In this document: one piece after another, positions 1-8,320 of the stretch
Position numbering within the stretch: the stretch's first letter is position 1
How the letters are laid out: every line of letters starts with the position of its first letter
Source: an uncultured bacterium
GTDB taxonomy: Bacteria > Cyanobacteriota > Cyanobacteriia > CAIUCS01
Assembly: GCA_964550475.1 (NCBI GenBank)
Contig: CAZJZR010000001.1
Span: 7,847-43,998 of the forward strand
Length of the DNA stretch: 36,152 nucleotides
Direction of reading: 5' to 3'
The notes under the pieces: generated by a model
Database searches by the model: none
Seen by the model: only the letters and a program-made list of their open reading frames with translations
What the model was told of the DNA's origin: nothing
Made by a program: the position numbers and the translations under genes

Positions 1-62
1 TCAAGCACGACATCTACATGGCAGAAGTGCCACTCGGTATGCCTGTGGCGCGTGCAGCGTAG
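1..62 (+). CDS. 3' end of an upstream ORF that runs off the window (possibly the preceding ABC-transporter gene of an nrt/cmp-type operon)
   Basis: The frame is open from the window edge to TAG at 60-62 (..KHDIYMAEVPLGMPVARAA*). It lies directly upstream of an NrtD-like ATPase on the same strand. The product is not identifiable from 20 codons. Confidence 0.3.
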   Translation, partial: KHDIYMAEVPLGMPVARAA

Positions 63-65
63 AGG

Positions 66-226
66 AGTGATGAGTGGTTAGTGGTAAGTGGTGAGTCAGT
101 AGCGATGAGTGACGAGTCATAACATCTGGTTGCATGACACATCGTGGTAAAGCCAGCAGGTTCTCACTCTGACACTCACTACTCTTTCACTCCCAACTCA
201 TCACTTACCACTCATTACTCACCACT
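66..226. repeat. Long imperfect inverted repeat built from heptamer-like units (GTGGTNA / TNACCAC)
   Basis: Arm 66-96 (agtgatgagtggttagtggtaagtggtgagt) is about 26/31 complementary to arm 196-226 (actcatcacttaccactcattactcaccact). The loop is about 100 nt. The element lies in the intergenic leader of the 257 ORF. Confidence 0.6.
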
Positions 227-256
227 TCTCTCTCCCTCTCCCACCCATTTCCTACC

Positions 257-1111
257 ATGCAAACCCTCATGACCACTGGAACCCCAACTTTACAAATCCC
301 TGATGCGCCACCGAGTCAGGATGCGTTTTTGACGATTGAGAATGTCTCGAAGGTCTACCAACTGCCCAAAGACCAAACCTATACGGTGTTGGAAAACGTC
401 AATCTGACGGTGCAGGCGGGTGAGTTTATCTGTGTGATTGGCCACTCTGGTTGCGGCAAAACCACGCTGCTGAATATGGTCAGCGGCTTTGCCAAGCCCA
501 CGACGGGTAGCGTCAAGCTAAACGGCAAGCCGATCGCCAAACCTGGCCCCGATCGCATGGTCGTGTTCCAAGGCTATGCGTTGTTGCCCTGGCTGACCGT
601 GTTTGAAAACGTCTATCTGGCGGTGAATGCGGTTTATCCAGAGAAGACCAAGGCGGAAAAGTCCCACATCGTCAAGGAACACTTGGCGATGGTGGGCTTG
701 ACGGAAGCGATGGAGAAAAAGCCAACCCAAATTTCCGGGGGGATGAAGCAACGGGTGGCGATCGCCCGTGCCCTGTCCATCCGTCCGGAAGTGCTGGTGT
801 TGGATGAACCCTTCGGCGCGTTGGATGCCATCACCAAGGAAGAACTGCAAGAAGAGTTGCTGAAGATCTGGAACGATTACCGCTGCACCGTGTTGATGAT
901 CACCCACGACATCGACGAAGCTCTGTTCCTCGCCGATCGCCTAGTGATGATGACCAATGGCCCCGCTGCCAACATTGGCGAAGTGATGGAAATTCCGTTC
1001 AAGCGTCCCCGCGATCGCGCCCGGATCATGGAATCGCCGGAATACTATCGCCTACGCAACTACGCCCTCGACTTCCTCTACAATCGGTTCGCCCACGACG
1101 ACACCGAATAG
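257..1111 (+). CDS. nrtD: ABC transporter ATP-binding protein, nitrate/bicarbonate (NrtD/CmpD) type
   Basis: 284 aa. Walker A GHSGCGKTT, ABC signature ISGGMKQR, Walker B LVLDEPFGALD and H-loop ITHD are all present. The overall sequence looks like the NrtD/CmpD/SsuB family. Choosing nrtD over cmpD is an inference. Confidence 0.88.
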   Translation: MQTLMTTGTPTLQIPDAPPSQDAFLTIENVSKVYQLPKDQTYTVLENVNLTVQAGEFICVIGHSGCGKTTLLNMVSGFAKPTTGSVKLNGKPIAKPGPDRMVVFQGYALLPWLTVFENVYLAVNAVYPEKTKAEKSHIVKEHLAMVGLTEAMEKKPTQISGGMKQRVAIARALSIRPEVLVLDEPFGALDAITKEELQEELLKIWNDYRCTVLMITHDIDEALFLADRLVMMTNGPAANIGEVMEIPFKRPRDRARIMESPEYYRLRNYALDFLYNRFAHDDTE

Positions 1112-1148
1112 ACGACGGTCATCGGCTTGGCCGAGTTAATTGCCGTAC

Positions 1149-1195
1149 AAACGCCTGATTGTTGGTGGATGCAGTCCAGAGACAATCAGGCGTTT
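1149..1195 (+). terminator. Hairpin element (aaacGCCTGATTGt ... aCAATCAGGCgttt); likely nrtD terminator and left copy of an inverted pair
   Basis: A 14-bp stem, 38 nt after the nrtD stop. The reverse complement is nearly identical to the element at 3800-3848. Confidence 0.45.
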
Positions 1196-1235
1196 CCATC
1201 TGGATTAACCTGAGTTCGGGATAAAAGATTGTGCG

Positions 1236-1386
1236 AATATGCTCTGGCGAATCGCATAAGCCCTTTGGGCAGGCTTTGCCTACGCGGCTATACGAACGAA
1301 GTCCCCCTACGGGAACCAGCCTTGACTGATGGTTGTTAGTGCGCGGAGGCGCACTTTGTCCGTGTAGACGCGGTTTCAACCGCCAG
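1236..1386. repeat. Dispersed MITE-like repeat modules
   Basis: 1236-1290 is the reverse complement of the module cgcgtaggcaaagcctgcccaa.gggc.tattc.attcgcc, also seen at 3947, 8615 and 32328. 1363-1385 (gtagacgcggtttcaaccgcc) is related to ggcggttaaaaccgcgactac at 13028 and 36056. Confidence 0.55.
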
Positions 1387-1503
1387 GTATCTCTTGTTCT
1401 CAGGCGATCGCGGCTACATACACCCGTAGTCCCCCCCAACGCCATCACCAAATTTGAACCAATCTCGACGGTCAACCCAGGGGTGCCTATACTGAATGCG
1501 TCA

Positions 1504-1645
1504 GCCTAAGTCGCTGATTCAGGATCTTAGGTGGAAAAAGTTCTACCTAATTACCCGTTTAAGCGATTTTAGGCAGAAGTAATTCAGCCTAATCAAGCTA
1601 TGGGGCGATTAGGTAGATTAGATTCTCTCTAATTACTAGTTAGGC
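1504..1645. repeat. Array of alternating CCTAA / TTAGG cores; three phased TTAGG-N14-CCTAA inverted-repeat sites ending in a GTTAGGC core
   Basis: GCCTAAG at 1504. TTAGG-N14-CCTAA at 1527-1550 and 1569-1592. TTAGG-N14-TCTAA at 1609-1632. GTTAGGC at 1639-1645. Site-to-site period is 40-42 bp. Confidence 0.55.
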
Positions 1646-1658
1646 ATCAGGTAAGCGT

Positions 1659-2021
1659 ATGAGCTACGACATAGGAATTTATCACCCAGAGGTTCGCGGT
1701 CGCGTTGAAGGGGGCGAGGATCTGGATGGGTTCGAACATCCACAACTCGATTCGGCTGCTGCCTCGCGGTTTGTTGAATCCCTCGCCGCCTATGGGTACA
1801 ACGCGGAGCCGTCGGCTCCGGATCACCGCGCGTTCGTAAAGAACGTGTCTGGAAACGAGGTTCTGGTACACGTCTTTCCGACCGAGATCGCATTTTCGGT
1901 TCCTTACGGAAAGAACTCAAAGGACGCGATCTTTGAGGCATTGCAGGATGCATCGGAGATCTTGGACTCCAAACACATGTGTATGTTCGATCCCCAAACA
2001 GGAGAGTGGGCTGATGCCTAA
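1659..2021 (+). CDS. Hypothetical protein (cassette ORF 1)
   Basis: 120-aa ORF with no motif I recognise. The ATG lies 13 nt after GTTAGGC. The TAA stop is embedded in GCCTAAC (2016-2022). Confidence 0.6.
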   Translation: MSYDIGIYHPEVRGRVEGGEDLDGFEHPQLDSAAASRFVESLAAYGYNAEPSAPDHRAFVKNVSGNEVLVHVFPTEIAFSVPYGKNSKDAIFEALQDASEILDSKHMCMFDPQTGEWADA

Positions 2022-2103
2022 CACCTCGCTGGAGCTGACGTGTGAAAGATAAAGTGCCAAGCTCAAACTCTGGCGCGCGCGCCGCTCATCTCAACCGTTG
2101 GGC
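2016..2103 (+). other. attC-like recombination site A
   Basis: R'' GCCTAAC, 5-nt spacer ACCTC, L'' GCTGGAGC ... L' GCTCATC, 6-nt spacer TCAACC, R' GTTGGGC. L''/L' pair with G at L'' position 4 bulged. T2036 is a second bulge before a GC-rich stem (2037-2044 with 2076-2083). Confidence 0.5.
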
Positions 2104-2193
2104 TGCTTCAGTTCTTGGTTGAGACAGCACTCGAATCGCTTCTGTTGAGTGCCGAAAGCGATCGCACAGATCCCGTTGCAGCATCAAAGTATA

Positions 2194-2223
2194 TTGACAA
2201 CGTAAATACGCCCTATTTACACT
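2194..2223 (+). promoter_or_regulatory. Candidate sigma70-type promoter for brnTA (possibly giving a leaderless mRNA)
   Basis: TTGACA at 2194-2199, an 18-nt spacer, then TACACT at 2218-2223. The ATG at 2230 is 7 nt downstream and has no Shine-Dalgarno sequence. Confidence 0.3.
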
Positions 2224-2229
2224 ACAAGT

Positions 2230-2526
2230 ATGGATGTGCATTTCGTTCTCAATGGCATCACGTTTGTCTGGAATGACGAGAAAGCCAGGATCAACCCGAT
2301 CAACCACGACGGTGTTACGTTCCAACAAGCCGCAGAAGTCTTCTTCGATCCATTGCTTGTGGTCGTTGATGCAAGTCGTAATGATGAAGCGCGGGATGCC
2401 GTTATTGGTTTAGATCGGCGTTGGAACTTGCTATACGTTGTCTTTGTTGATCGGGAAAACGACATCATTCGGATCATTTCGGCTCGTAAAGCGACACGTA
2501 AGGAGCGGGAATTTTATGAAGCCTGA
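2230..2526 (+). CDS. brnT: BrnT-family (DUF497) ribonuclease toxin
   Basis: 98 aa. The sequence F.WD..KA..N...HGV.F.EA..VF.D....V.D........R...IG.......L.VV...R......IISAR.A...E...Y is the typical BrnT signature. It overlaps the downstream antitoxin ORF. Confidence 0.85.
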   Translation: MDVHFVLNGITFVWNDEKARINPINHDGVTFQQAAEVFFDPLLVVVDASRNDEARDAVIGLDRRWNLLYVVFVDRENDIIRIISARKATRKEREFYEA

Positions 2527-2800
2527 AACGTTGAAAAAGCGGCTAGATCGAAACCGTCCCATGACGACGATCACCATTCGGATGCCTGAAGATGTGATTG
2601 AGGACTTGAAGCAAGTTGCCCCCCTACTGGGTTTTTCTGGGTATCAACCTTTAGTACGTGCTTATATCGGGCAAGGTCTACGAGCTGACTTAGAGCGTTT
2701 GGAAGGCGATACGGTATCTGCATTGATTGCAAGCCTCAAGCGTCATGGTGTCAGTGATGAGGTAATTCAAGAAGCACTAGGTGAAGTGACTGGGCGTTAA
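2516..2800 (+). CDS. brnA: BrnA-family antitoxin (RHH-like)
   Basis: I prefer the ATG at 2516 (MKPETLKKRLDRNRPMTTITIRMPEDVIEDLKQVA..), not the 2438 start in the ORF track. AGGAG at 2501-2505 serves as RBS. It overlaps brnT by 11 nt. Size and the ITIRMPEDVIEDLK strand-helix motif fit BrnA. Confidence 0.8.
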   Translation: MKPETLKKRLDRNRPMTTITIRMPEDVIEDLKQVAPLLGFSGYQPLVRAYIGQGLRADLERLEGDTVSALIASLKRHGVSDEVIQEALGEVTGR

Positions 2801-2987
2801 TTTGAGTCTGGCTTACAGCCAGCATCCCAATCGGGTCGAGGATGGTATTTCTCCCTCCCCTCCCACACCACCTGCCATGCGGGTCCGCAACAGGCGGTTC
2901 ATGAAGACGCGCAAACAACTCTAATGGTTTAGGTATAGCCTTGGACTTTCATCCAAAGACTACGAATAGATAGCAATCCCTGTTGCT

Positions 2988-3218
2988 CTAACCACGGCTC
3001 GACTGAGCATCGCCGAACGTCTCATTGGTCATTCCCGTCTGTGTCGCCAGCGTTTTGGACAACCGCCAATAGTCTTTGCGACTAATGCCCGTCAAAATCG
3101 CATGACGTTCAGATCTCCCTTCGTGGGTTTGCCCTTGCCTTAAGCTAGTAGTTGTCGTCACTTGGCTCCTATAACTTTCGAGCATTTGGACGCTGGTTCT
3201 CCTACAGGGGACTTTCAC
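2988..3218 (-). CDS. Possible small ribbon-helix-helix (CopG-like) protein, orphan or degraded
   Basis: The segment ILTGISRKDYWRLSKTLATQTGMTNETF resembles the RHH beta-strand/helix/G.S/helix pattern. There is no partner ORF, and the start and reality of the gene are uncertain. Confidence 0.25.
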   Translation of the reverse strand: MKVPCRRTSVQMLESYRSQVTTTTSLRQGQTHEGRSERHAILTGISRKDYWRLSKTLATQTGMTNETFGDAQSSRG

Positions 3219-3242
3219 CCCATTGATTCATGCCCATGCTGG

Positions 3243-3330
3243 GCGTACACAATTCGGGTGCAGTGGATTGATCGAAGCCGCTTGGGTTGGATGCAAAGAT
3301 GTCGGCAACCGCTGACCAGAACCGTTAGGC
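3243..3330 (+). other. attC-like recombination site B (degenerate R'')
   Basis: R''-like GCGTACAC, spacer AATTCG, L'' GGTGCAGT (3257-3264) ... L' GCTGACC (3311-3317), 6-nt spacer AGAACC, R' GTTAGGC (3324-3330). G3260 and A3267 are bulged. The 5' half is homologous to site C (G.TGCAG.G). Confidence 0.42.
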
Positions 3331-3341
3331 CACTTCGCACC

Positions 3342-3608
3342 ATGAGCGAGAATATCACCATCACACTGTCACGCGACGAGGGTCTTGTATTGTTCGAGTT
3401 CTTCGCACGTTTTGGCGAGGACGATAATGATTTCACTCTTCGCCACACTGCCGAGTATCTTGCGTTCATGCGGATGTCGGCGCAGCTCGACAAGATGTTT
3501 GTTGAGCCATTTGACCCGAAGTATAAGGATTTACTGCGAGCAGCACGCGACCGAGTTGCAGCAGGCTATGAAGGCAAAGCACCAGGAGTTCACGATGACG
3601 TGGCCTAA
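3342..3608 (+). CDS. Hypothetical protein (cassette ORF 3)
   Basis: I prefer the ATG at 3342 (MSENITITLSRDEG...), 11 nt after GTTAGGC, giving 88 aa. The TAA stop lies inside GCCTAAC (3603-3609). The 3162 start in the track would read through site B. Confidence 0.6.
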   Translation: MSENITITLSRDEGLVLFEFFARFGEDDNDFTLRHTAEYLAFMRMSAQLDKMFVEPFDPKYKDLLRAARDRVAAGYEGKAPGVHDDVA

Positions 3609-3695
3609 CCATGCGTTGCAGCGAACCCAGCGTGAGCGTTGCGGTTGCCATCGTTGCGTCCCGTGCGCCGGGTTGCTGAGCTTGGGGCGTTCGAC
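3603..3695 (+). other. attC-like recombination site C (degenerate R')
   Basis: R'' GCCTAAC, spacer CATGC, L'' GTTGCAGC ... L' GCTGAGC (3675-3681), 7-nt spacer, GTTCGAC. There is a stem of about 15 bp (3615-3632 with 3666-3681), with G3618 and G3623 bulged and one mismatch. Confidence 0.5.
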
Positions 3696-3799
3696 AGAAT
3701 CAAACTCAAGGAAAATGAAAAGCGTCAGATTTTGTGAGAAGGGAAGCGAACAGAGAGTTGCACTGGTGACGGGTTCAACATCAGGAATAATGCGGTGTC

Positions 3800-3848
3800 A
3801 AAAGCCTGATTGCGTCTGGACTTTATCCACAAACAATCAGGCTTTTTT
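3800..3848 (+). terminator. Hairpin element with T-tract (aaaaGCCTGATTG ... CAATCAGGCtttttt); right, inverted copy of the 1149 element
   Basis: A 13-bp stem followed by TTTTTT. The sequence matches the reverse complement of 1149-1195 over nearly its full length. Confidence 0.5.
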
Positions 3849-3946
3849 GCGGAGAACTAGACCTTTCTATGTATAAATGCAGGATATAGGGCGTATTTCA
3901 CGTTTGGGGGAGGGGCGGTTAAAACCGCATCTACAAGAACTAAACC

Positions 3947-4019
3947 CGCGTAGGCAAAGCCTGCCCAACGGGCATATTCTATTCGCCCGGATGTATCCCC
4001 CAACTGTTGGATACGCCCC
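3947..4019. repeat. Dispersed repeat module (cgcgtaggcaaagcctgcccaacgggcatattctattcgcccggatg..cccccaactgttggatacgccc)
   Basis: Near-identical copies lie at 8615-8685 and 32328-32399, with an inverted partial copy at 1236-1290. Confidence 0.75.
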
Positions 4020-4035
4020 AGGATATAAATGCAAG

Positions 4036-5118
4036 CTAGTCCGCCAGGAACTGCACCAATTTCTCTAAGGTTGTCCAAGCAGCACCACTGTTGAGGATAT
4101 CGTGGGCGATCGCCAGCCCAGCCGCATGATCGCCCAAAGGCACCACTTCGCCCACCTGCAATGCCAGCGAAGCATTCAACGCCACGGCATCCCGTTGGGC
4201 GGTGGTGCCTTTCCCCTGCAATACGGCTTGCAAAATGGCGGCATTTTCTTGCACATCTCCACCCACCAACGCACTAATTGGGGTGGGAGACAGCCCCAGA
4301 GCAGCGGGAGCTAAGGTTGCCGCTGACACCTGCCCTTGGCTAAGGATGGCCAAGTCGGTGACATCGCCTAAGCCGGCCTCGTCCAGCTTTTCCCGACCAT
4401 GGAGCGCGATCGCCCGTTGGATGCCCAACTGTCCCAACGCCTGCGCCATAATTTCCACCAACTTGGGATCCGACACGCCCAACACCTGCCCGGTGGGTCG
4501 TAATGGGTTCACCAACGGCCCCAACAAGTTAAAAATTGTCCGAATCCCCAAGGTTTTTCGCAGTGGTGCAACTGCTTTCATCGCTGGATGCCAACCGGGG
4601 GCGAACAGAAATGTAATCCCGACTTCCGTCAGTGCGGCCTGAATTTTCTCCGGTGCAGCGGCCAAATTAACGCCCAAAGCTTCCAGTACATCCGCAGACC
4701 CCACCTTGCCAGAGGCCGAACGGTTGCCGTGTTTGGACACCACCACCCCCGCCGCCGCCGCCACAAACGCCACTGCGGTTGAAATATTAAAGGTCGAAGC
4801 CCCATCGCCACCCGTGCCGCAGGTGTCAATCCGAGGGGTGGGCAAGTCCGTTATGGCCGTTCCCTCTACCCCACGGGACTGCCCTTGGAGCACCTGTGCC
4901 ATTCCCGTCAATTCTTCGACCGACACTCCTTTGGCCTGGATGGCAGTTAAAATTCCCCCCGACAACACCGGAGGAATCGCCTCTGCCAACCACCCCTGCA
5001 TTAACCCCTGGGCTTGCTCTACAGATAAGGATTGCCCGTCTAAGAGTTGTTGCAAGAGGGCAGACCATTGCAGGGTTGCGATAGATTCAGAGGCTTGCGG
5101 GGCAGGGGACATAACCAT
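4036..5118 (-). CDS. trpD: Anthranilate phosphoribosyltransferase
   Basis: 360 aa. It contains the TrpD hallmarks [17 protein letters not shown] and [22 protein letters not shown]. Confidence 0.95.
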
Positions 5119-5292
5119 GATGTACTTGCGGGGTAAATCGTCATTATTGTAATTAATCAGCTTAAATCATCCGCGTACCCAAGCGGTTCTGAGCAACGTA
5201 ATCTCTCCATGACTCTGGGTTTAATCCAAAACAGGATTAACTACTGGATCAACTAACAGTCACGTTCCTTATCGGTGCTAAGGGAGGAGCGT

Positions 5293-5409
5293 AAAAATAA
5301 AGTACCCATAATCTAAAGATGATGCGTTACGGCTGAAGCCTTTAGGCAAAGCCCATGCCGGAGGCTATACGCATCCTACGCTGGGTATTTTATTTATTTG
5401 CAGATCCCT
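5293..5409. repeat. MITE-like element with terminal inverted repeats (aaaataaagtaccc ... gggtattttattt)
   Basis: A second copy lies at 24423-24529 with the same internal sequence (gatgcgtt.cggct.aa.cc.t..ggc.aagcccat.ccggaggctatacgca.cctac). Confidence 0.7.
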
Positions 5410-5617
5410 AACCTGCTTGATTCACGACATTCTACACGCCAAACCGTAGGGGCAAGCCCCCCGTGGTTGCCTCATAGGTCAGACAATTAGACAGTGATCT
5501 TGTAGACAGTGATCTTGGTGTAAAGCGGCATTCCCTGCATTGGGCGGTGTCCCCGTGACCACCTCTACGAGTTTTGGGGCTTTTGCGTAAATCCGTAAAT
5601 CGTCATGAAAATGCAAG

Positions 5618-8320
5618 CTAATCCACCGTTTCATTCACCGGGAAGCGATCCATCAGTTGGATGGCTTGGCGGGCGGTGGTGTAGAGGCTGGTGGAAATGT
5701 GGGGGACGTGGGGGATTTGCGAGAGGAAGTCCACGGTGCGGCGGAGAATGCGTACCACATCGCCATCGTCTAAGCTGGTGTTGGCGCACAACTCCGACCA
5801 TTCGATCCCCAACGCCCACTGTTCGACTACACCAATCAGGTCATACTCCAACCACACGGGCAGGGCTACTTGCGATCGCCGTTGTCGCTGGAACAATTGA
5901 TGGCGCAGGGTGCGTAATCCGCCCAACGCTTCTTCGACTTCGCCAGAGGGCGTGTAGTTGATCCAAATATCCGGGCGGGAGACTTCCGTGGTGAGGGCAG
6001 CGGAGGCGGCAGCCAGATGGTGGGGAGCTAGATGATCCAACTCACCGGACATTAACGCTAAGCCCAGCCAGAGTTCGTTGTCGCCTCGGATGGCGGCGGC
6101 AGCTTCGCCCAATTCCGTCGGCTTCATGTTGCGATCCAGACAGCCGAAACTTTCGAGAATTTTGATCAGTTGCAGAAACTCATCCCAGTGGCGATGGGCA
6201 TGGTGATCCAGCTTGGTTTGCCGATCGGTCAATTCCTGCTGCAAGGACATAAACCGTTTGCGGCGTTTGAGCAAATTGGCGCGATCGCCCCACTGATGCA
6301 CCGGATGGGACAACAGCTTTTCCTCCACTGCTGTCACCCGCTTAATTTGGTTTTGCACCTCCTCGCTCATGTCTACTTGGGAGACTTCCAACACCTGGCG
6401 ATTGGCAATGGTGCTGAGTTTTTGGCTGATCGGCAGGGAGTCTTCGTGGCCGCTGCGGTGCTGTCCCGGTTTCAGGGGTAGCTCTGGCGGTGGGGTGAGA
6501 TTGTCCACGGCGGTAATGCGCGGCAATTCGCCATGCAACCCGACCACATCGTTGGTGGTGACGACATACCAACGGTTACTGTCAGACAGACAGACGAGGT
6601 AGGGGAACTGGCCGGAGCCTGGGACTTTGCTGACCAGGACTGCTGGAACGGGGGTGGGGACTGGGACGTGCTTGCCCTTGAGGCTGAGGATGGTGCCTGC
6701 GACGGCAAATTTGAGGGCGATCGCCATCTCGCTGCCAATGGTTTCTTCCGCCTGTTGTTGCAGAATTTTCAGCAGTCGCCGTTCTTCCTTCAGGTGCCCT
6801 TGGAGTTTTTCATAGGCATCCACCGCAGCCCAGTCCACCTTGCCCAGTTGGGCTTGCAGGCGGTCAAGTTCGGCTTCTAAGGCGGCGATCGCGTCCCGCT
6901 GCGGCTTCAGGTGCAAGGTGGACAGGTATTGGCCAAAACTGCGTTCCACCAGTTCCCGCGCTTCTTCCAACGTGTGGATTTGCAACAGGTTCAGCACCAT
7001 GCCGTAGCTGGGGGTGAACTGGCTGACCAGCGGATCGGCTCCGGCGGTGGTGAGATAGCTGGCTTCCTTGGCTCCCTCAAATGCTGACTGCACCGTCACC
7101 ACATGACCGACTGGATCCATGCCCCGTCGTCCGGCGCGTCCGGCCATTTGCAGAAATTCCGAGGGCGTGAGCAGTCGATGCCCCATATCCGTTCGTTTAG
7201 ACAGGCTGGAAATCACCGTGGTGCGGGCGGGCATATTGATCCCCGCTGCCAGGGTTTCGGTGGCAAACACCACTTTGACTAAGCCCTGCTGGAACAATTC
7301 TTCCACCAAGCCCTTCCAGGCAGGTAGCAGTCCGGCGTGGTGCGAGGCGATGCCCCGGTGCAACGGCTCCAGTTGATCCGCCTGTGCCATTTCCGGAAAC
7401 CGTTCTACGAATGCGGCGATTTGTCGGCGCAATTGGTCGGCTTCCCATTCGTTGACCAAACACAGATCGCCCAAGTCTCGGACGGCGCGATCGCAGCCCC
7501 GCCGACTGAAGATGAAGTAAATTGCGGGCAGCATATCTCGCTGGCTCAGTTGCGCGAGGGCAAAGGCCATGCTGGGGGCTTCTTGGCGGGGAGCTTTGCC
7601 ATTACCGCCGCGCCCCCGTCCGCCCTTGGGTTTGAGGCGGGGATTAATCTGCTTGCCGCTGTCATCCAGTAAGGGAAACAGCCCCTTGGGGTTGCAGAAG
7701 TAAAATTGCAGCGGTACCGGTCGGAAACTGGAGTGGATCAGTTCCGTCGGCCCGTGTACCTGGGCAATCCAGTCGGTGAGTTGGTCGCTGTTGGCGATGG
7801 TGGCGGAAAGGGCGACCAGTTGAATTTCCCTAGGGCAATAGATGATCGACTCTTCCCAGACGGTACCGCGCTGGCGATCGTTCATATAATGGCACTCGTC
7901 CAGTACCACGGCTTCCAAGTCCACGAGGGACGTGCCCACCTGCCCAATCGGGGTGCCATACAGCATATTGCGGAAAATTTCCGTCGTCATCACCACGACG
8001 GTGGCATCCCGGTTCACGGACAGATCCCCAGTCAGCAAACCCACCCGGTCTGCGCCAAACTGGTCACGGAAATCGCGGAATTTCTGGTTGGATAAGGCTT
8101 TGAGTGGCGTTGTATAGAACACCCGTCGCCCCCGTGCCAAGGCGCGATGGATGGCATATTCCCCAATCAGCGTCTTCCCCGATCCGGTGGGCACGCACAC
8201 CACCACCGATTTGTCGGCGTTGAGAGCCGCGATCGCCCGTTCCTGGAACTCATCCAGGGGGAAGGGAAACAATTGCTCTAGATTTAGCCCAGTTGCGATG
8301 GGGTCAACAGTCACGCTCAA
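5618..8320 (-). CDS. Ski2-like DEAD/DEAH-box superfamily II helicase
   Basis: 900 aa. Motif I PTGSGKT, motif II DECH, SAT, motif VI QMAGRAGRRG and a long C-terminal Ski2/DSHCT-like region are present. Confidence 0.9.
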   Translation of the reverse strand: MSVTVDPIATGLNLEQLFPFPLDEFQERAIAALNADKSVVVCVPTGSGKTLIGEYAIHRALARGRRVFYTTPLKALSNQKFRDFRDQFGADRVGLLTGDLSVNRDATVVVMTTEIFRNMLYGTPIGQVGTSLVDLEAVVLDECHYMNDRQRGTVWEESIIYCPREIQLVALSATIANSDQLTDWIAQVHGPTELIHSSFRPVPLQFYFCNPKGLFPLLDDSGKQINPRLKPKGGRGRGGNGKAPRQEAPSMAFALAQLSQRDMLPAIYFIFSRRGCDRAVRDLGDLCLVNEWEADQLRRQIAAFVERFPEMAQADQLEPLHRGIASHHAGLLPAWKGLVEELFQQGLVKVVFATETLAAGINMPARTTVISSLSKRTDMGHRLLTPSEFLQMAGRAGRRGMDPVGHVVTVQSAFEGAKEASYLTTAGADPLVSQFTPSYGMVLNLLQIHTLEEARELVERSFGQYLSTLHLKPQRDAIAALEAELDRLQAQLGKVDWAAVDAYEKLQGHLKEERRLLKILQQQAEETIGSEMAIALKFAVAGTILSLKGKHVPVPTPVPAVLVSKVPGSGQFPYLVCLSDSNRWYVVTTNDVVGLHGELPRITAVDNLTPPPELPLKPGQHRSGHEDSLPISQKLSTIANRQVLEVSQVDMSEEVQNQIKRVTAVEEKLLSHPVHQWGDRANLLKRRKRFMSLQQELTDRQTKLDHHAHRHWDEFLQLIKILESFGCLDRNMKPTELGEAAAAIRGDNELWLGLALMSGELDHLAPHHLAAASAALTTEVSRPDIWINYTPSGEVEEALGGLRTLRHQLFQRQRRSQVALPVWLEYDLIGVVEQWALGIEWSELCANTSLDDGDVVRILRRTVDFLSQIPHVPHISTSLYTTARQAIQLMDRFPVNETVD

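Follow-up and report, generated by a model that had tools for sequence, protein, structure and literature searches.

What kind of element is a row of evenly spaced palindromes that stands directly in front of a string of gene cassettes and carries the box sequence of a recombination site in its arms? The locus in question lies near the start of the window, by which is meant the whole 36,152-nucleotide stretch of DNA analysed here. A preliminary description had located TTAGG-N14-CCTAA at 1527-1550 and 1569-1592, TTAGG-N14-TCTAA at 1609-1632, GCCTAAG at 1504-1510 and GTTAGGC at 1639-1645, and all of these are found where it placed them. The spacing of 40-42 bp given there also stands, as a repeat search of the window finds three direct-repeat copies at spacings of 42 and 40 bp, but the count of three units does not. 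A fourth palindromic unit of 23 bp, CTATACTGAAtgcGTCAGCCTAA, is present upstream at 1487-1509. It was detected with a half-site PWM (consensus TTAGGCAGAAAA), which catches 23-bp units that a fixed 24-bp palindrome scorer misses. GCCTAAG, formerly taken as a bracket of the block, is instead the right arm of this unit and represents one more half-site.

The array at 1487-1632 is composed of four units, all on the plus strand. Unit 0 (1487-1509) reads CTATACTGAA-tgc-GTCAGCCTAA and agrees with the first-unit consensus gg.tg.TTat.c.gaaa.tttc.acctaA drawn from 48 arrays. Unit 1 (1527-1550, TTAGGTGGAAAAAGTTCTACCTAA) and unit 2 (1569-1592, TTAGGCAGAAGTAATTCAGCCTAA) are each recovered by pattern match, repeat search and PWM, and unit 3 (1609-1632) reads TTAGGTAGATTAGATTCTCTCTAA. 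Eight half-sites are found by the PWM in strict alternation of strand, at 1487+, 1509-, 1527+, 1550-, 1569+, 1592-, 1609+ and 1632-, with the consensus TTAGGCAGAA and a period of 40-42 bp. When the units are compared with each other, the palindrome is seen to reach further inward, to TTAGGnnGAA-N4-TTCnnCCTAA.

The array is not a by-product of base composition. Exact TTAGG-N14-CCTAA occurs twice in the 36 kb window, where shuffles give an expectation of 0.01. The TTAGG/CCTAA pentamer itself is at background level window-wide (54 found, 52 expected), with seven of the 54 inside 1505-1644. The loose pattern is not enriched in the genome from which the window comes (five sites, and 17 for a reversed control), but the extended pattern gives four sites there and none in the control, and 18 sites (these four included) in 12 of 201 class genomes as against one control site. 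Palindromic units are also confined: 15 of the 16 found in the 4.8-Mb genome fall within its seven arrays, and a shuffled genome gives two. Parts of the array that are specific to the window had no exact match in scans of genome contigs and metagenome contigs.

The right end of the array merges with a second motif. The right arm of unit 3, TCTCTAA at 1626-1632, is the L box of a core site, TCTAA-ttactag-TTAGG, whose R box is GTTAGGC at 1639-1645 on the plus strand. The site displays the two inverted boxes of an attI simple site in a TCTAA-N7-TTAGG arrangement, its R box matches GTTRRRY, and the inferred crossover lies between G1639 and T1640. The geometry is equal to that of the simple site of attI1, which is taken here to be CCTAA-N7-TTAGG. 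The TCTAA arm of unit 3 is not a degenerate copy of the other arms but a conserved L box with the consensus CCCTCTAAT; the CTCTAA form of the right arm of the last unit is kept in 55 arrays of the survey described below. If strands are exchanged between G1639 and T1640, all DNA to the right of G1639 would be captured cassette DNA.

This DNA has the appearance of an integron cassette array, with three cassettes in one orientation, on the plus strand, bounded by attC-like sites with R''/R' boxes at 2016/2097, ~3243/3324 and 3603/3689. Cassette 1 (1640-2097) contains an open reading frame at 1659-2021 (120 aa, no family match) and an attC at 2016-2103 (GCCTAAC ... GTTGGGC); the stop codon lies within the R'' box, and the 3' half of the attC is similar to the attC of an intact cyanobacterial integron. 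Cassette 2 (2098-3324) carries brnT at 2230-2526 (BrnT_toxin Pfam match, 7e-23), a brnA-like gene at 2516-2800 and a further 440 bp that are unassigned. It ends in an attC-like site at ~3243-3330 with R' GTTAGGC at 3324, whose fold is imperfect, and this boundary is the least certain of the three. Cassette 3 (3325-3689) has an open reading frame at 3342-3608 (88 aa) and an attC at 3603-3695 (GCCTAAC ... GTTCGAC), again with the stop codon within R'', that forms a long imperfect hairpin; its R' sequence GTTCGAC is also found at another cyanobacterial attI junction (G011). The attC calls in the window were made by hand criteria and a crude regex-plus-duplex finder and not with the IntegronFinder covariance model; the finder detects the first attC of the window and one attC elsewhere in the genome (on contig C185) but is insensitive on other genomes, where R'' is often AGCTAAC or GGCTAAC. 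When folded as single strands, the three attC-like sites have energies not distinguishable from those of shuffles. A PADLOC search of the cassette proteins gave no match.

An integrase is missing from this picture. No integrase-family domain is present in the open reading frames of window positions 1-8320, and neither intI nor an intI remnant is found upstream of the array. A cluster of attC sites that has no integron integrase is termed a CALIN (Cury 2016, PMC4889954). The window shows three attC-like sites and no integrase-family domain, and CALINs likewise are cassette arrays without a nearby intI, thought to arise from intI loss or rearrangement. The window array differs in that it still begins with a complete attI, and in related orphan copies cassettes have been replaced at G^TT. 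The integrase-less state of the window corresponds to a CALIN that kept its attI.

Upstream of the array are an ABC-transporter ATPase gene (257-1111) and, between this gene and the array, a MITE-like repeat at 1246-1386 for which BLAST gives more than 100 hits in the assembly. The repeat occurs as several module variants, and a copy of it truncates the intI remnant on contig C185. A weak CRISPR-DR28 Rfam match at 1337-1360 (E = 0.61, below threshold) falls inside it. After cassette 3 follow trpD and a helicase gene on the opposite strand. Synteny with a same-genus genome around trpD is not conserved on the relevant side, and no empty site is demonstrable there. A hairpin element of ~50 bp, present as an inverted pair (1143-1195 and ~3800-3852; 83% identity between 1143-1195 and C1:11698-11646), flanks the whole islet of attI and cassettes.

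The 4.83-Mb, 73%-complete assembly contains seven arrays by BLAST and PWM, namely that of the window and those on contigs C176, C185, C189, C330, C377 and C209. The C176 array is located just after hisS, and the C189 array beside kdpA, followed by a nucleotidyltransferase gene. The C377 array has one full unit plus unit 0, and the C209 array (C209:5295-5345) is truncated to unit 0 and half of unit 1. Well-preserved copies all finish ...CTCTAAT-N5-AGTTA and then diverge; the window, C185 and C189 copies, for example, have the last unit in common and differ beyond it. About 85 bp upstream of the C185 array, in divergent orientation, is MHVSDPPPRKLLDQVRLKHYSYRTEETYVQWVRRYILFH, the N-terminus of an intI (TIGR02249 positions 5-39). 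It is cut off by a MITE and is the only TIGR02249 match in the assembly; no intact integrase was found in this 73%-complete assembly. One open reading frame and a clean attC of 115 bp lie downstream of the C185 array. Behind the orphan array on C189, the first gene (C189:5952-6863) encodes a 303-aa nucleotidyltransferase-like protein (GSYGRDTDIHISDIDML motif), possibly a defence-type cassette. On C209, the truncated array is joined to the sequence upstream of a 1363-aa filamentous-haemagglutinin-like gene, beside pyruvate kinase.

Seven genomic copies, with a genuine abundant MITE just upstream of one of them, could also speak for a dispersed repeat or for a transposon end with phased transposase sites, since multiple phased sites are typical of Tn7 and Mu ends and of res. 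The copies do not behave in this way. They number seven, as against more than 100 hits for the true MITE; the generic MITE which the preliminary description had named as its own refutation is not what is found. The right end is always at G^TT, with unrelated DNA beyond it in all well-preserved copies, and homology on the upstream side ends at variable points. The contig lacks a second array in inverted orientation, and the 4 kb surrounding the array contain neither a transposase nor a resolvase gene. An origin as a MITE or transposon end is scarcely plausible. A likeness to the three-subsite res architecture, also raised earlier, does not hold either: no serine recombinase is encoded, and the units, which number four, have a uniform 23-24 bp geometry. 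Sites of the res type are bound by a serine recombinase and have three subsites that differ in spacing; here the half-site spacings do not differ in this manner and a resolvase gene is lacking.

The array is not peculiar to one genome. A scan with one and a half units as query, covering one genome per species (185,579 species genomes, 596 Gb), gave 92 loci, where about two are expected by chance on our own estimate. These loci hold 93 arrays from 90 contigs. Named records are nearly all Cyanobacteria, among them Leptolyngbya, Nodosilinea, Phormidesmis, Leptothoe, Halomicronema, Spirulina and Pseudanabaena. A match in an Enterocloster MAG is a lone palindrome and a chance match. One further array, on a contig labelled as a Verrucomicrobiota MAG (L112, P01_A01_bin.112), is of cyanobacterial type, and its flank is 81% identical to that of another locus of the survey (L151); this may be a mis-binned contig and not a non-cyanobacterial integron.

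The architecture of the block recurs in the 93 arrays of the 90 cyanobacterial contigs. Its commonest form spans 145 bp and has eight half-sites. Units follow each other at a period of 41 bp in 135 cases, 40 bp in 56 and 42 bp in 13; of the palindromes, 160 are 24 bp long and 125 are 23 bp, and 199 linkers measure 17 bp. Relatives' arrays have from three to seven units. The window copy represents the canonical form; all of its units agree with the consensus, down to the first half-site of TTATAC type and the GGnTG before it. The conserved half-site is ~17 bp long, GGGnnnTTAGGCnGAAA, and exceeds the R box alone, with GGG and GAAA parts that are absent from attC R boxes. Almost every palindrome pairs one TTAGGC-type with one TTAGGT-type half-site. 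At the variable position 6, the complementarity of the arms is below expectation (0.20 as against 0.50, and 0.10 as against 0.35, in units of the 93 arrays). This anti-covariation suggests two non-equivalent binding modes per unit.

Among 55 arrays anchored at GTT, the core consensus is CTCTAATaA.tAGTTAG, with N6 between CTAA and GTT in 51 of the 55. Information content stays high as far as CTCTAATaA.tAGTTAG.C and is down to about 0 bits at +10 and beyond. When arrays are oriented, similarity is found upstream in 96 pairs and downstream (600 bp) in none. Seven groups of near-identical arrays match over attI and flank at 82-99% identity and lose this match precisely past G^TT(A), and pairs that are 94-99% identical upstream likewise pass into unrelated sequence exactly there. 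At one such junction, ...AATAAATAG^TTATACC, one copy continues with gctcag and the other with tacaaa. A G^TT crossover point separates conserved attI from variable cassette DNA in these arrays. The break in homology at G^TT can be recognized as the signature of an attI/cassette junction, and it is the trace that repeated integrase-mediated exchange of cassettes at an attI should leave.

Intact integrons in relatives show what lies on the other side. Integron integrases above the TIGR02249 cut-off are present in 62 of the 201 sampled class genomes, along with many fragments. Matches to TIGR02249 often number two to six per genome in this sample, and many are truncated or have in-frame stops. 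Several integron platforms per genome and heavy decay of intI seem to be the rule in filamentous cyanobacteria. Intact cyanobacterial intI loci match TIGR02249 at 450-490 bits; in the alignment the integrases share 57-78% identity with its first sequence and, as judged by eye, carry the IntI-specific insertion. Between the intI start and the first GTTAG, at least 16 of the 24 intact loci have 4-12 alternating half-sites by PWM, as against 0.4 expected per 400 bp. Several of the remaining loci (G075, G171) show the same periodic design with other box sequences. In a complete genome of the same genus (G001), the intergenic region after the intI start codon contains four TTAGACAGAAAGTTTCTGTCTAA-type units and ends in GTCTAATACATAGTTAGAC, and in another genome (G014) the same design is built with TATAGAC boxes between intI and the first cassette.

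The subtype of the array tracks the IntI clade. In the same-genus genome the intI-linked array is of the TTAGAC subtype, which differs from the orphan TTAGG-type array of that genome. In the 93 surveyed arrays, an intI-like match is present within 1.5 kb in 21 cases. Without exception the match is divergent, and its distance is usually 93-100 bp; six of the matches span the full length, and the other 15 are fragments that vary in extent. In intact integrons the array is flanked by intI on one side and by the first cassette on the other. No conserved partner gene other than intI is found beside intI in the relatives' loci. A location between a divergent intI and the first cassette is seen in the family, in at least 16 of the 24 intact loci, and is absent in the orphan copy of the window.

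Positions 1487-1645 are very probably an orphan attI site of the sedentary chromosomal integron of a filamentous-type cyanobacterium, from which the adjoining integrase gene was deleted. The original suggestion of an attI-like platform for loading a recombinase at the edge of the cassette array gains support from the position of the array in intact integrons and from the end of homology at G^TT. IntI is expected to act on the double-stranded core site and on the folded bottom strand of a cassette attC, and strands would be exchanged at G1639^T1640, between the inverted L (TCTCTAA, 1626-1632) and R (GTTAGGC, 1639-1645) boxes. Upstream of the core are seven more TTAGG(C/T)nGAA half-sites, which together with the L box make up the four palindromic units. 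As the period of 40-42 bp is close to four helical turns, all units would lie on one face of the DNA. The upstream half-sites are putative accessory binding sites for IntI that would hold extra integrase protomers beside the core and might shape the DNA for attI x attC synapsis, the role that has been proposed for DR1 and DR2 of attI1. Occupancy of the array could also affect transcription, because the array sits where PintI and Pc must be.

Which protein binds the half-sites can be approached from the units themselves. They are confined to arrays, their arms anti-covary, and the outer box TTAGGC is the R box of both attI and attC; because of these features the data point to an integron-dedicated protein that would bind duplex DNA, and IntI is the sole candidate encoded nearby. 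The L box of the core, as the arm of the last palindrome, joins the two parts. Two observations do not fit easily. The boxes inside each palindrome face opposite to those of the core site, which counts against binding by IntI; the core-type orientation is found instead across the linkers, at 17 bp instead of 7, i.e., with one extra turn. Also, given the long half-site with its GGG and GAAA parts, a second protein may bind there.

The latter point leads to a different proposal, that the palindromes are operators of a dedicated regulator other than IntI that controls the divergent PintI and Pc promoters, and that only the last TCTAA-N7-TTAGG recombines. The location between intI and the cassettes, where both promoters must be, is compatible with this, as are the 24-bp palindromes, which are typical of dimeric regulators, and the flanks of the half-site that are foreign to attC R boxes. 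A sigma-70-like sequence, TCGACG-17-TATACT (1465-1493, plus strand), a possible Pc, overlaps unit 0 with its -10 at the first half-site. This promoter is weak and inferred only; it scores 9/12, not above shuffle expectation, and the TTATAC form of the first half-site is kept across arrays but the -35 is not. A dedicated regulator is nevertheless unlikely. There is no conserved partner gene next to intI to encode it, and with 15 of 16 units inside arrays there is no regulon of isolated operators and no other genomic target. In addition, the R box of attI and attC recurs as the outer box of the half-sites, and the sharing of the L box with the last palindrome makes array and core site one continuous design.

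Two further readings depend on a folded single strand. In the first, the block is an unusually long attC of 142 bp left by an upstream cassette, with R'' GCCTAAG at 1504 and R' GTTAGGC at 1639. Its end boxes do resemble R'' and R', its length falls at the upper end of attC sizes and, as a single strand, it gives a more stable fold than shuffles do (z = -4.3 and -4.6). No cassette is located upstream, however, the conserved unit begins at 1487 and not at 1504, and in intact integrons this array adjoins the start codon of intI. An attC is an imperfect hairpin of the single strand, with paired R''/R' and L''/L' boxes, in which structure but not sequence is conserved, and here the sequence is conserved across families and the arm positions anti-covary without pairing. 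The long attC has next to no likelihood. In the second, the block is a structured leader RNA with three or four hairpins that regulates expression of the cassettes, a reading compatible with its place downstream of the promoter-like site and upstream of the first open reading frame and with the predicted fold, stronger than that of shuffles. Compensatory changes are absent and pairing at the variable arm positions is below chance. Arm complementarity below chance rules out selection for hairpins and fits asymmetric protein sites. Furthermore, an Rfam search of the block gave no match and the arrays are conserved whatever the downstream gene. A leader RNA is extremely improbable.

The attI reading can be set beside the few sites of this kind known in detail. 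In the integron of class 1, attI1 is composed of a simple site (L and R) and two direct repeats, DR1 and DR2, which bind IntI1 and favour attI x attC recombination (PMC3146285, PMC8946536). Like attI1, the cyanobacterial element appears as a duplex site for integrase docking that separates intI from the first cassette, with two inverted core boxes in CTAA-N7-TTAG geometry, a GTTRRRY R box with crossover at G^TT, and extra copies of the box upstream, which in attI1 are accessory integrase-binding sites. In attI1 there are two accessory boxes in direct orientation within ~65 bp; the cyanobacterial site has seven accessory half-sites in alternating orientation that form four palindromes of 23-24 bp with a 40-42 bp period over ~160 bp. 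The window site shows no similarity to attI1 beyond the boxes, and the integrase gene is absent here. The simple site and DR1/DR2 of attI1 go back to Partridge 2000 and Gravel 1998 according to PMC3146285 and PMC8946536, and the attIA site of Vibrio and environmental attI sites reportedly to Nield 2001. Like attIA, the cyanobacterial site belongs to a sedentary chromosomal integron, has its simple site at the junction and appears to be cognate to, and to co-evolve with, its integrase. Unlike attIA, it has the most elaborate accessory array among the attI sites found described. The attIA of Vibrio cholerae and most environmental attI sites, for which Elsaied 2011 (PMC3146285) is a source, have been reported without accessory repeats (PMC3146285, PMC8946536).

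Phased protein sites beside a crossover are also found in other recombination systems. The arm-type sites of lambda attP, the accessory sequences of XerCD at cer and psi, and the res sites of Tn3 and gamma-delta are presumed to assemble a higher-order structure by which synapsis is controlled. In lambda, a separate domain binds the arm sites and host factors take part, and the Xer system relies on PepA and ArgR. None of the proteins of the lambda, Xer or res systems is encoded here, and the likeness is a functional analogy only, not membership.

A literature search for cyanobacterial attI sites or integrons found nothing specific. This agrees with the earlier statement that no element with this layout had been described, although accessory attI sites as such are known from DR1/DR2 of attI1. 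The evenly spaced palindromes probably constitute a conserved attI feature of filamentous cyanobacteria that is not found described in the literature searched. Detailed knowledge of attI sites is limited to a handful of integrons, and IntegronFinder searches for attI of classes 1-3 only, other attI sequences being unknown (PMC4889954). With the present data an attI of ~160 bp is defined, with a clear consensus, for a large group of cyanobacterial integrons. The consensus permits the annotation of cyanobacterial integron platforms, integrase-less ones included, and the boundary of the first cassette can be placed to the base. It also raises the question of why eight phased half-sites are present here when attI1 has two accessory boxes and attIA none, which bears on the accessory factors required by chromosomal integrases in attI x attC integration (PMC8946536).

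Orphan arrays are abundant. No intI-like match is found nearby in 72 of the 93 arrays, the window copy among them. In half of the testable orphans some of the flank on the intI side is retained, breaking off at points between -15 and -187 bp, and these left flanks are best described as a deletion series and not as the precise boundary of a mobile element. The orphans are as well preserved as the intI-linked arrays, with 7.2 and 8.2 half-sites, respectively, and an equal PWM score. Two Phormidesmidales MAGs have an orphan layout in common, consisting of an endonuclease-type gene, ~190 bp and the array, with 94% identity over 2.1 kb, and their first cassettes are unrelated from exactly G^TT. No intact intI was found in these two MAGs. 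The pair suggests that cassettes were exchanged after local loss of the integrase.

Genomes with orphan arrays often have an intact intI elsewhere, an example being Nodosilinea LVE1205-7, with two intact intI and at least six arrays. It can be tentatively hypothesized that orphan attI arrays are working docking sites served in trans by a distant integrase, in a distributed integron where each array is a self-contained recruiting platform; this is a possibility to which somewhat less than even weight is given. If the array of eight half-sites acts as an intasome-like scaffold that recruits integrase, its remote use by a distant integrase would become possible. A cyanobacterial genome would then run several attI sites, seven in the present case, on one or two intI genes. 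The observation that the subtype of an array can differ from that of the resident intI counts against use in trans, and so does the failure to find an intact intI in the two Phormidesmidales MAGs. With orphan attI sites abundant and cassettes turning over at them, action of the integrase in trans is directly testable.

Some orphans appear to have multiplied within a genome. On CP089923.1 of Nodosilinea sp. LVE1205-7, two paralogous orphan arrays (L117 and L137) share 300-1400 bp of upstream flank that is 83-96% identical and includes a low-complexity repeat ORF region, which suggests that arrays spread within one genome together with part of their flank. In a cyanobacterial MAG from LacPavin (L101), orphan arrays at 676-800 and 5055-5180 are 4.4 kb apart in equal orientation. 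They have ~430 bp of upstream flank in common, including ~54 bp of the 5' end of intI, and are followed by different cassettes; the two can be regarded as tandem decayed platforms.
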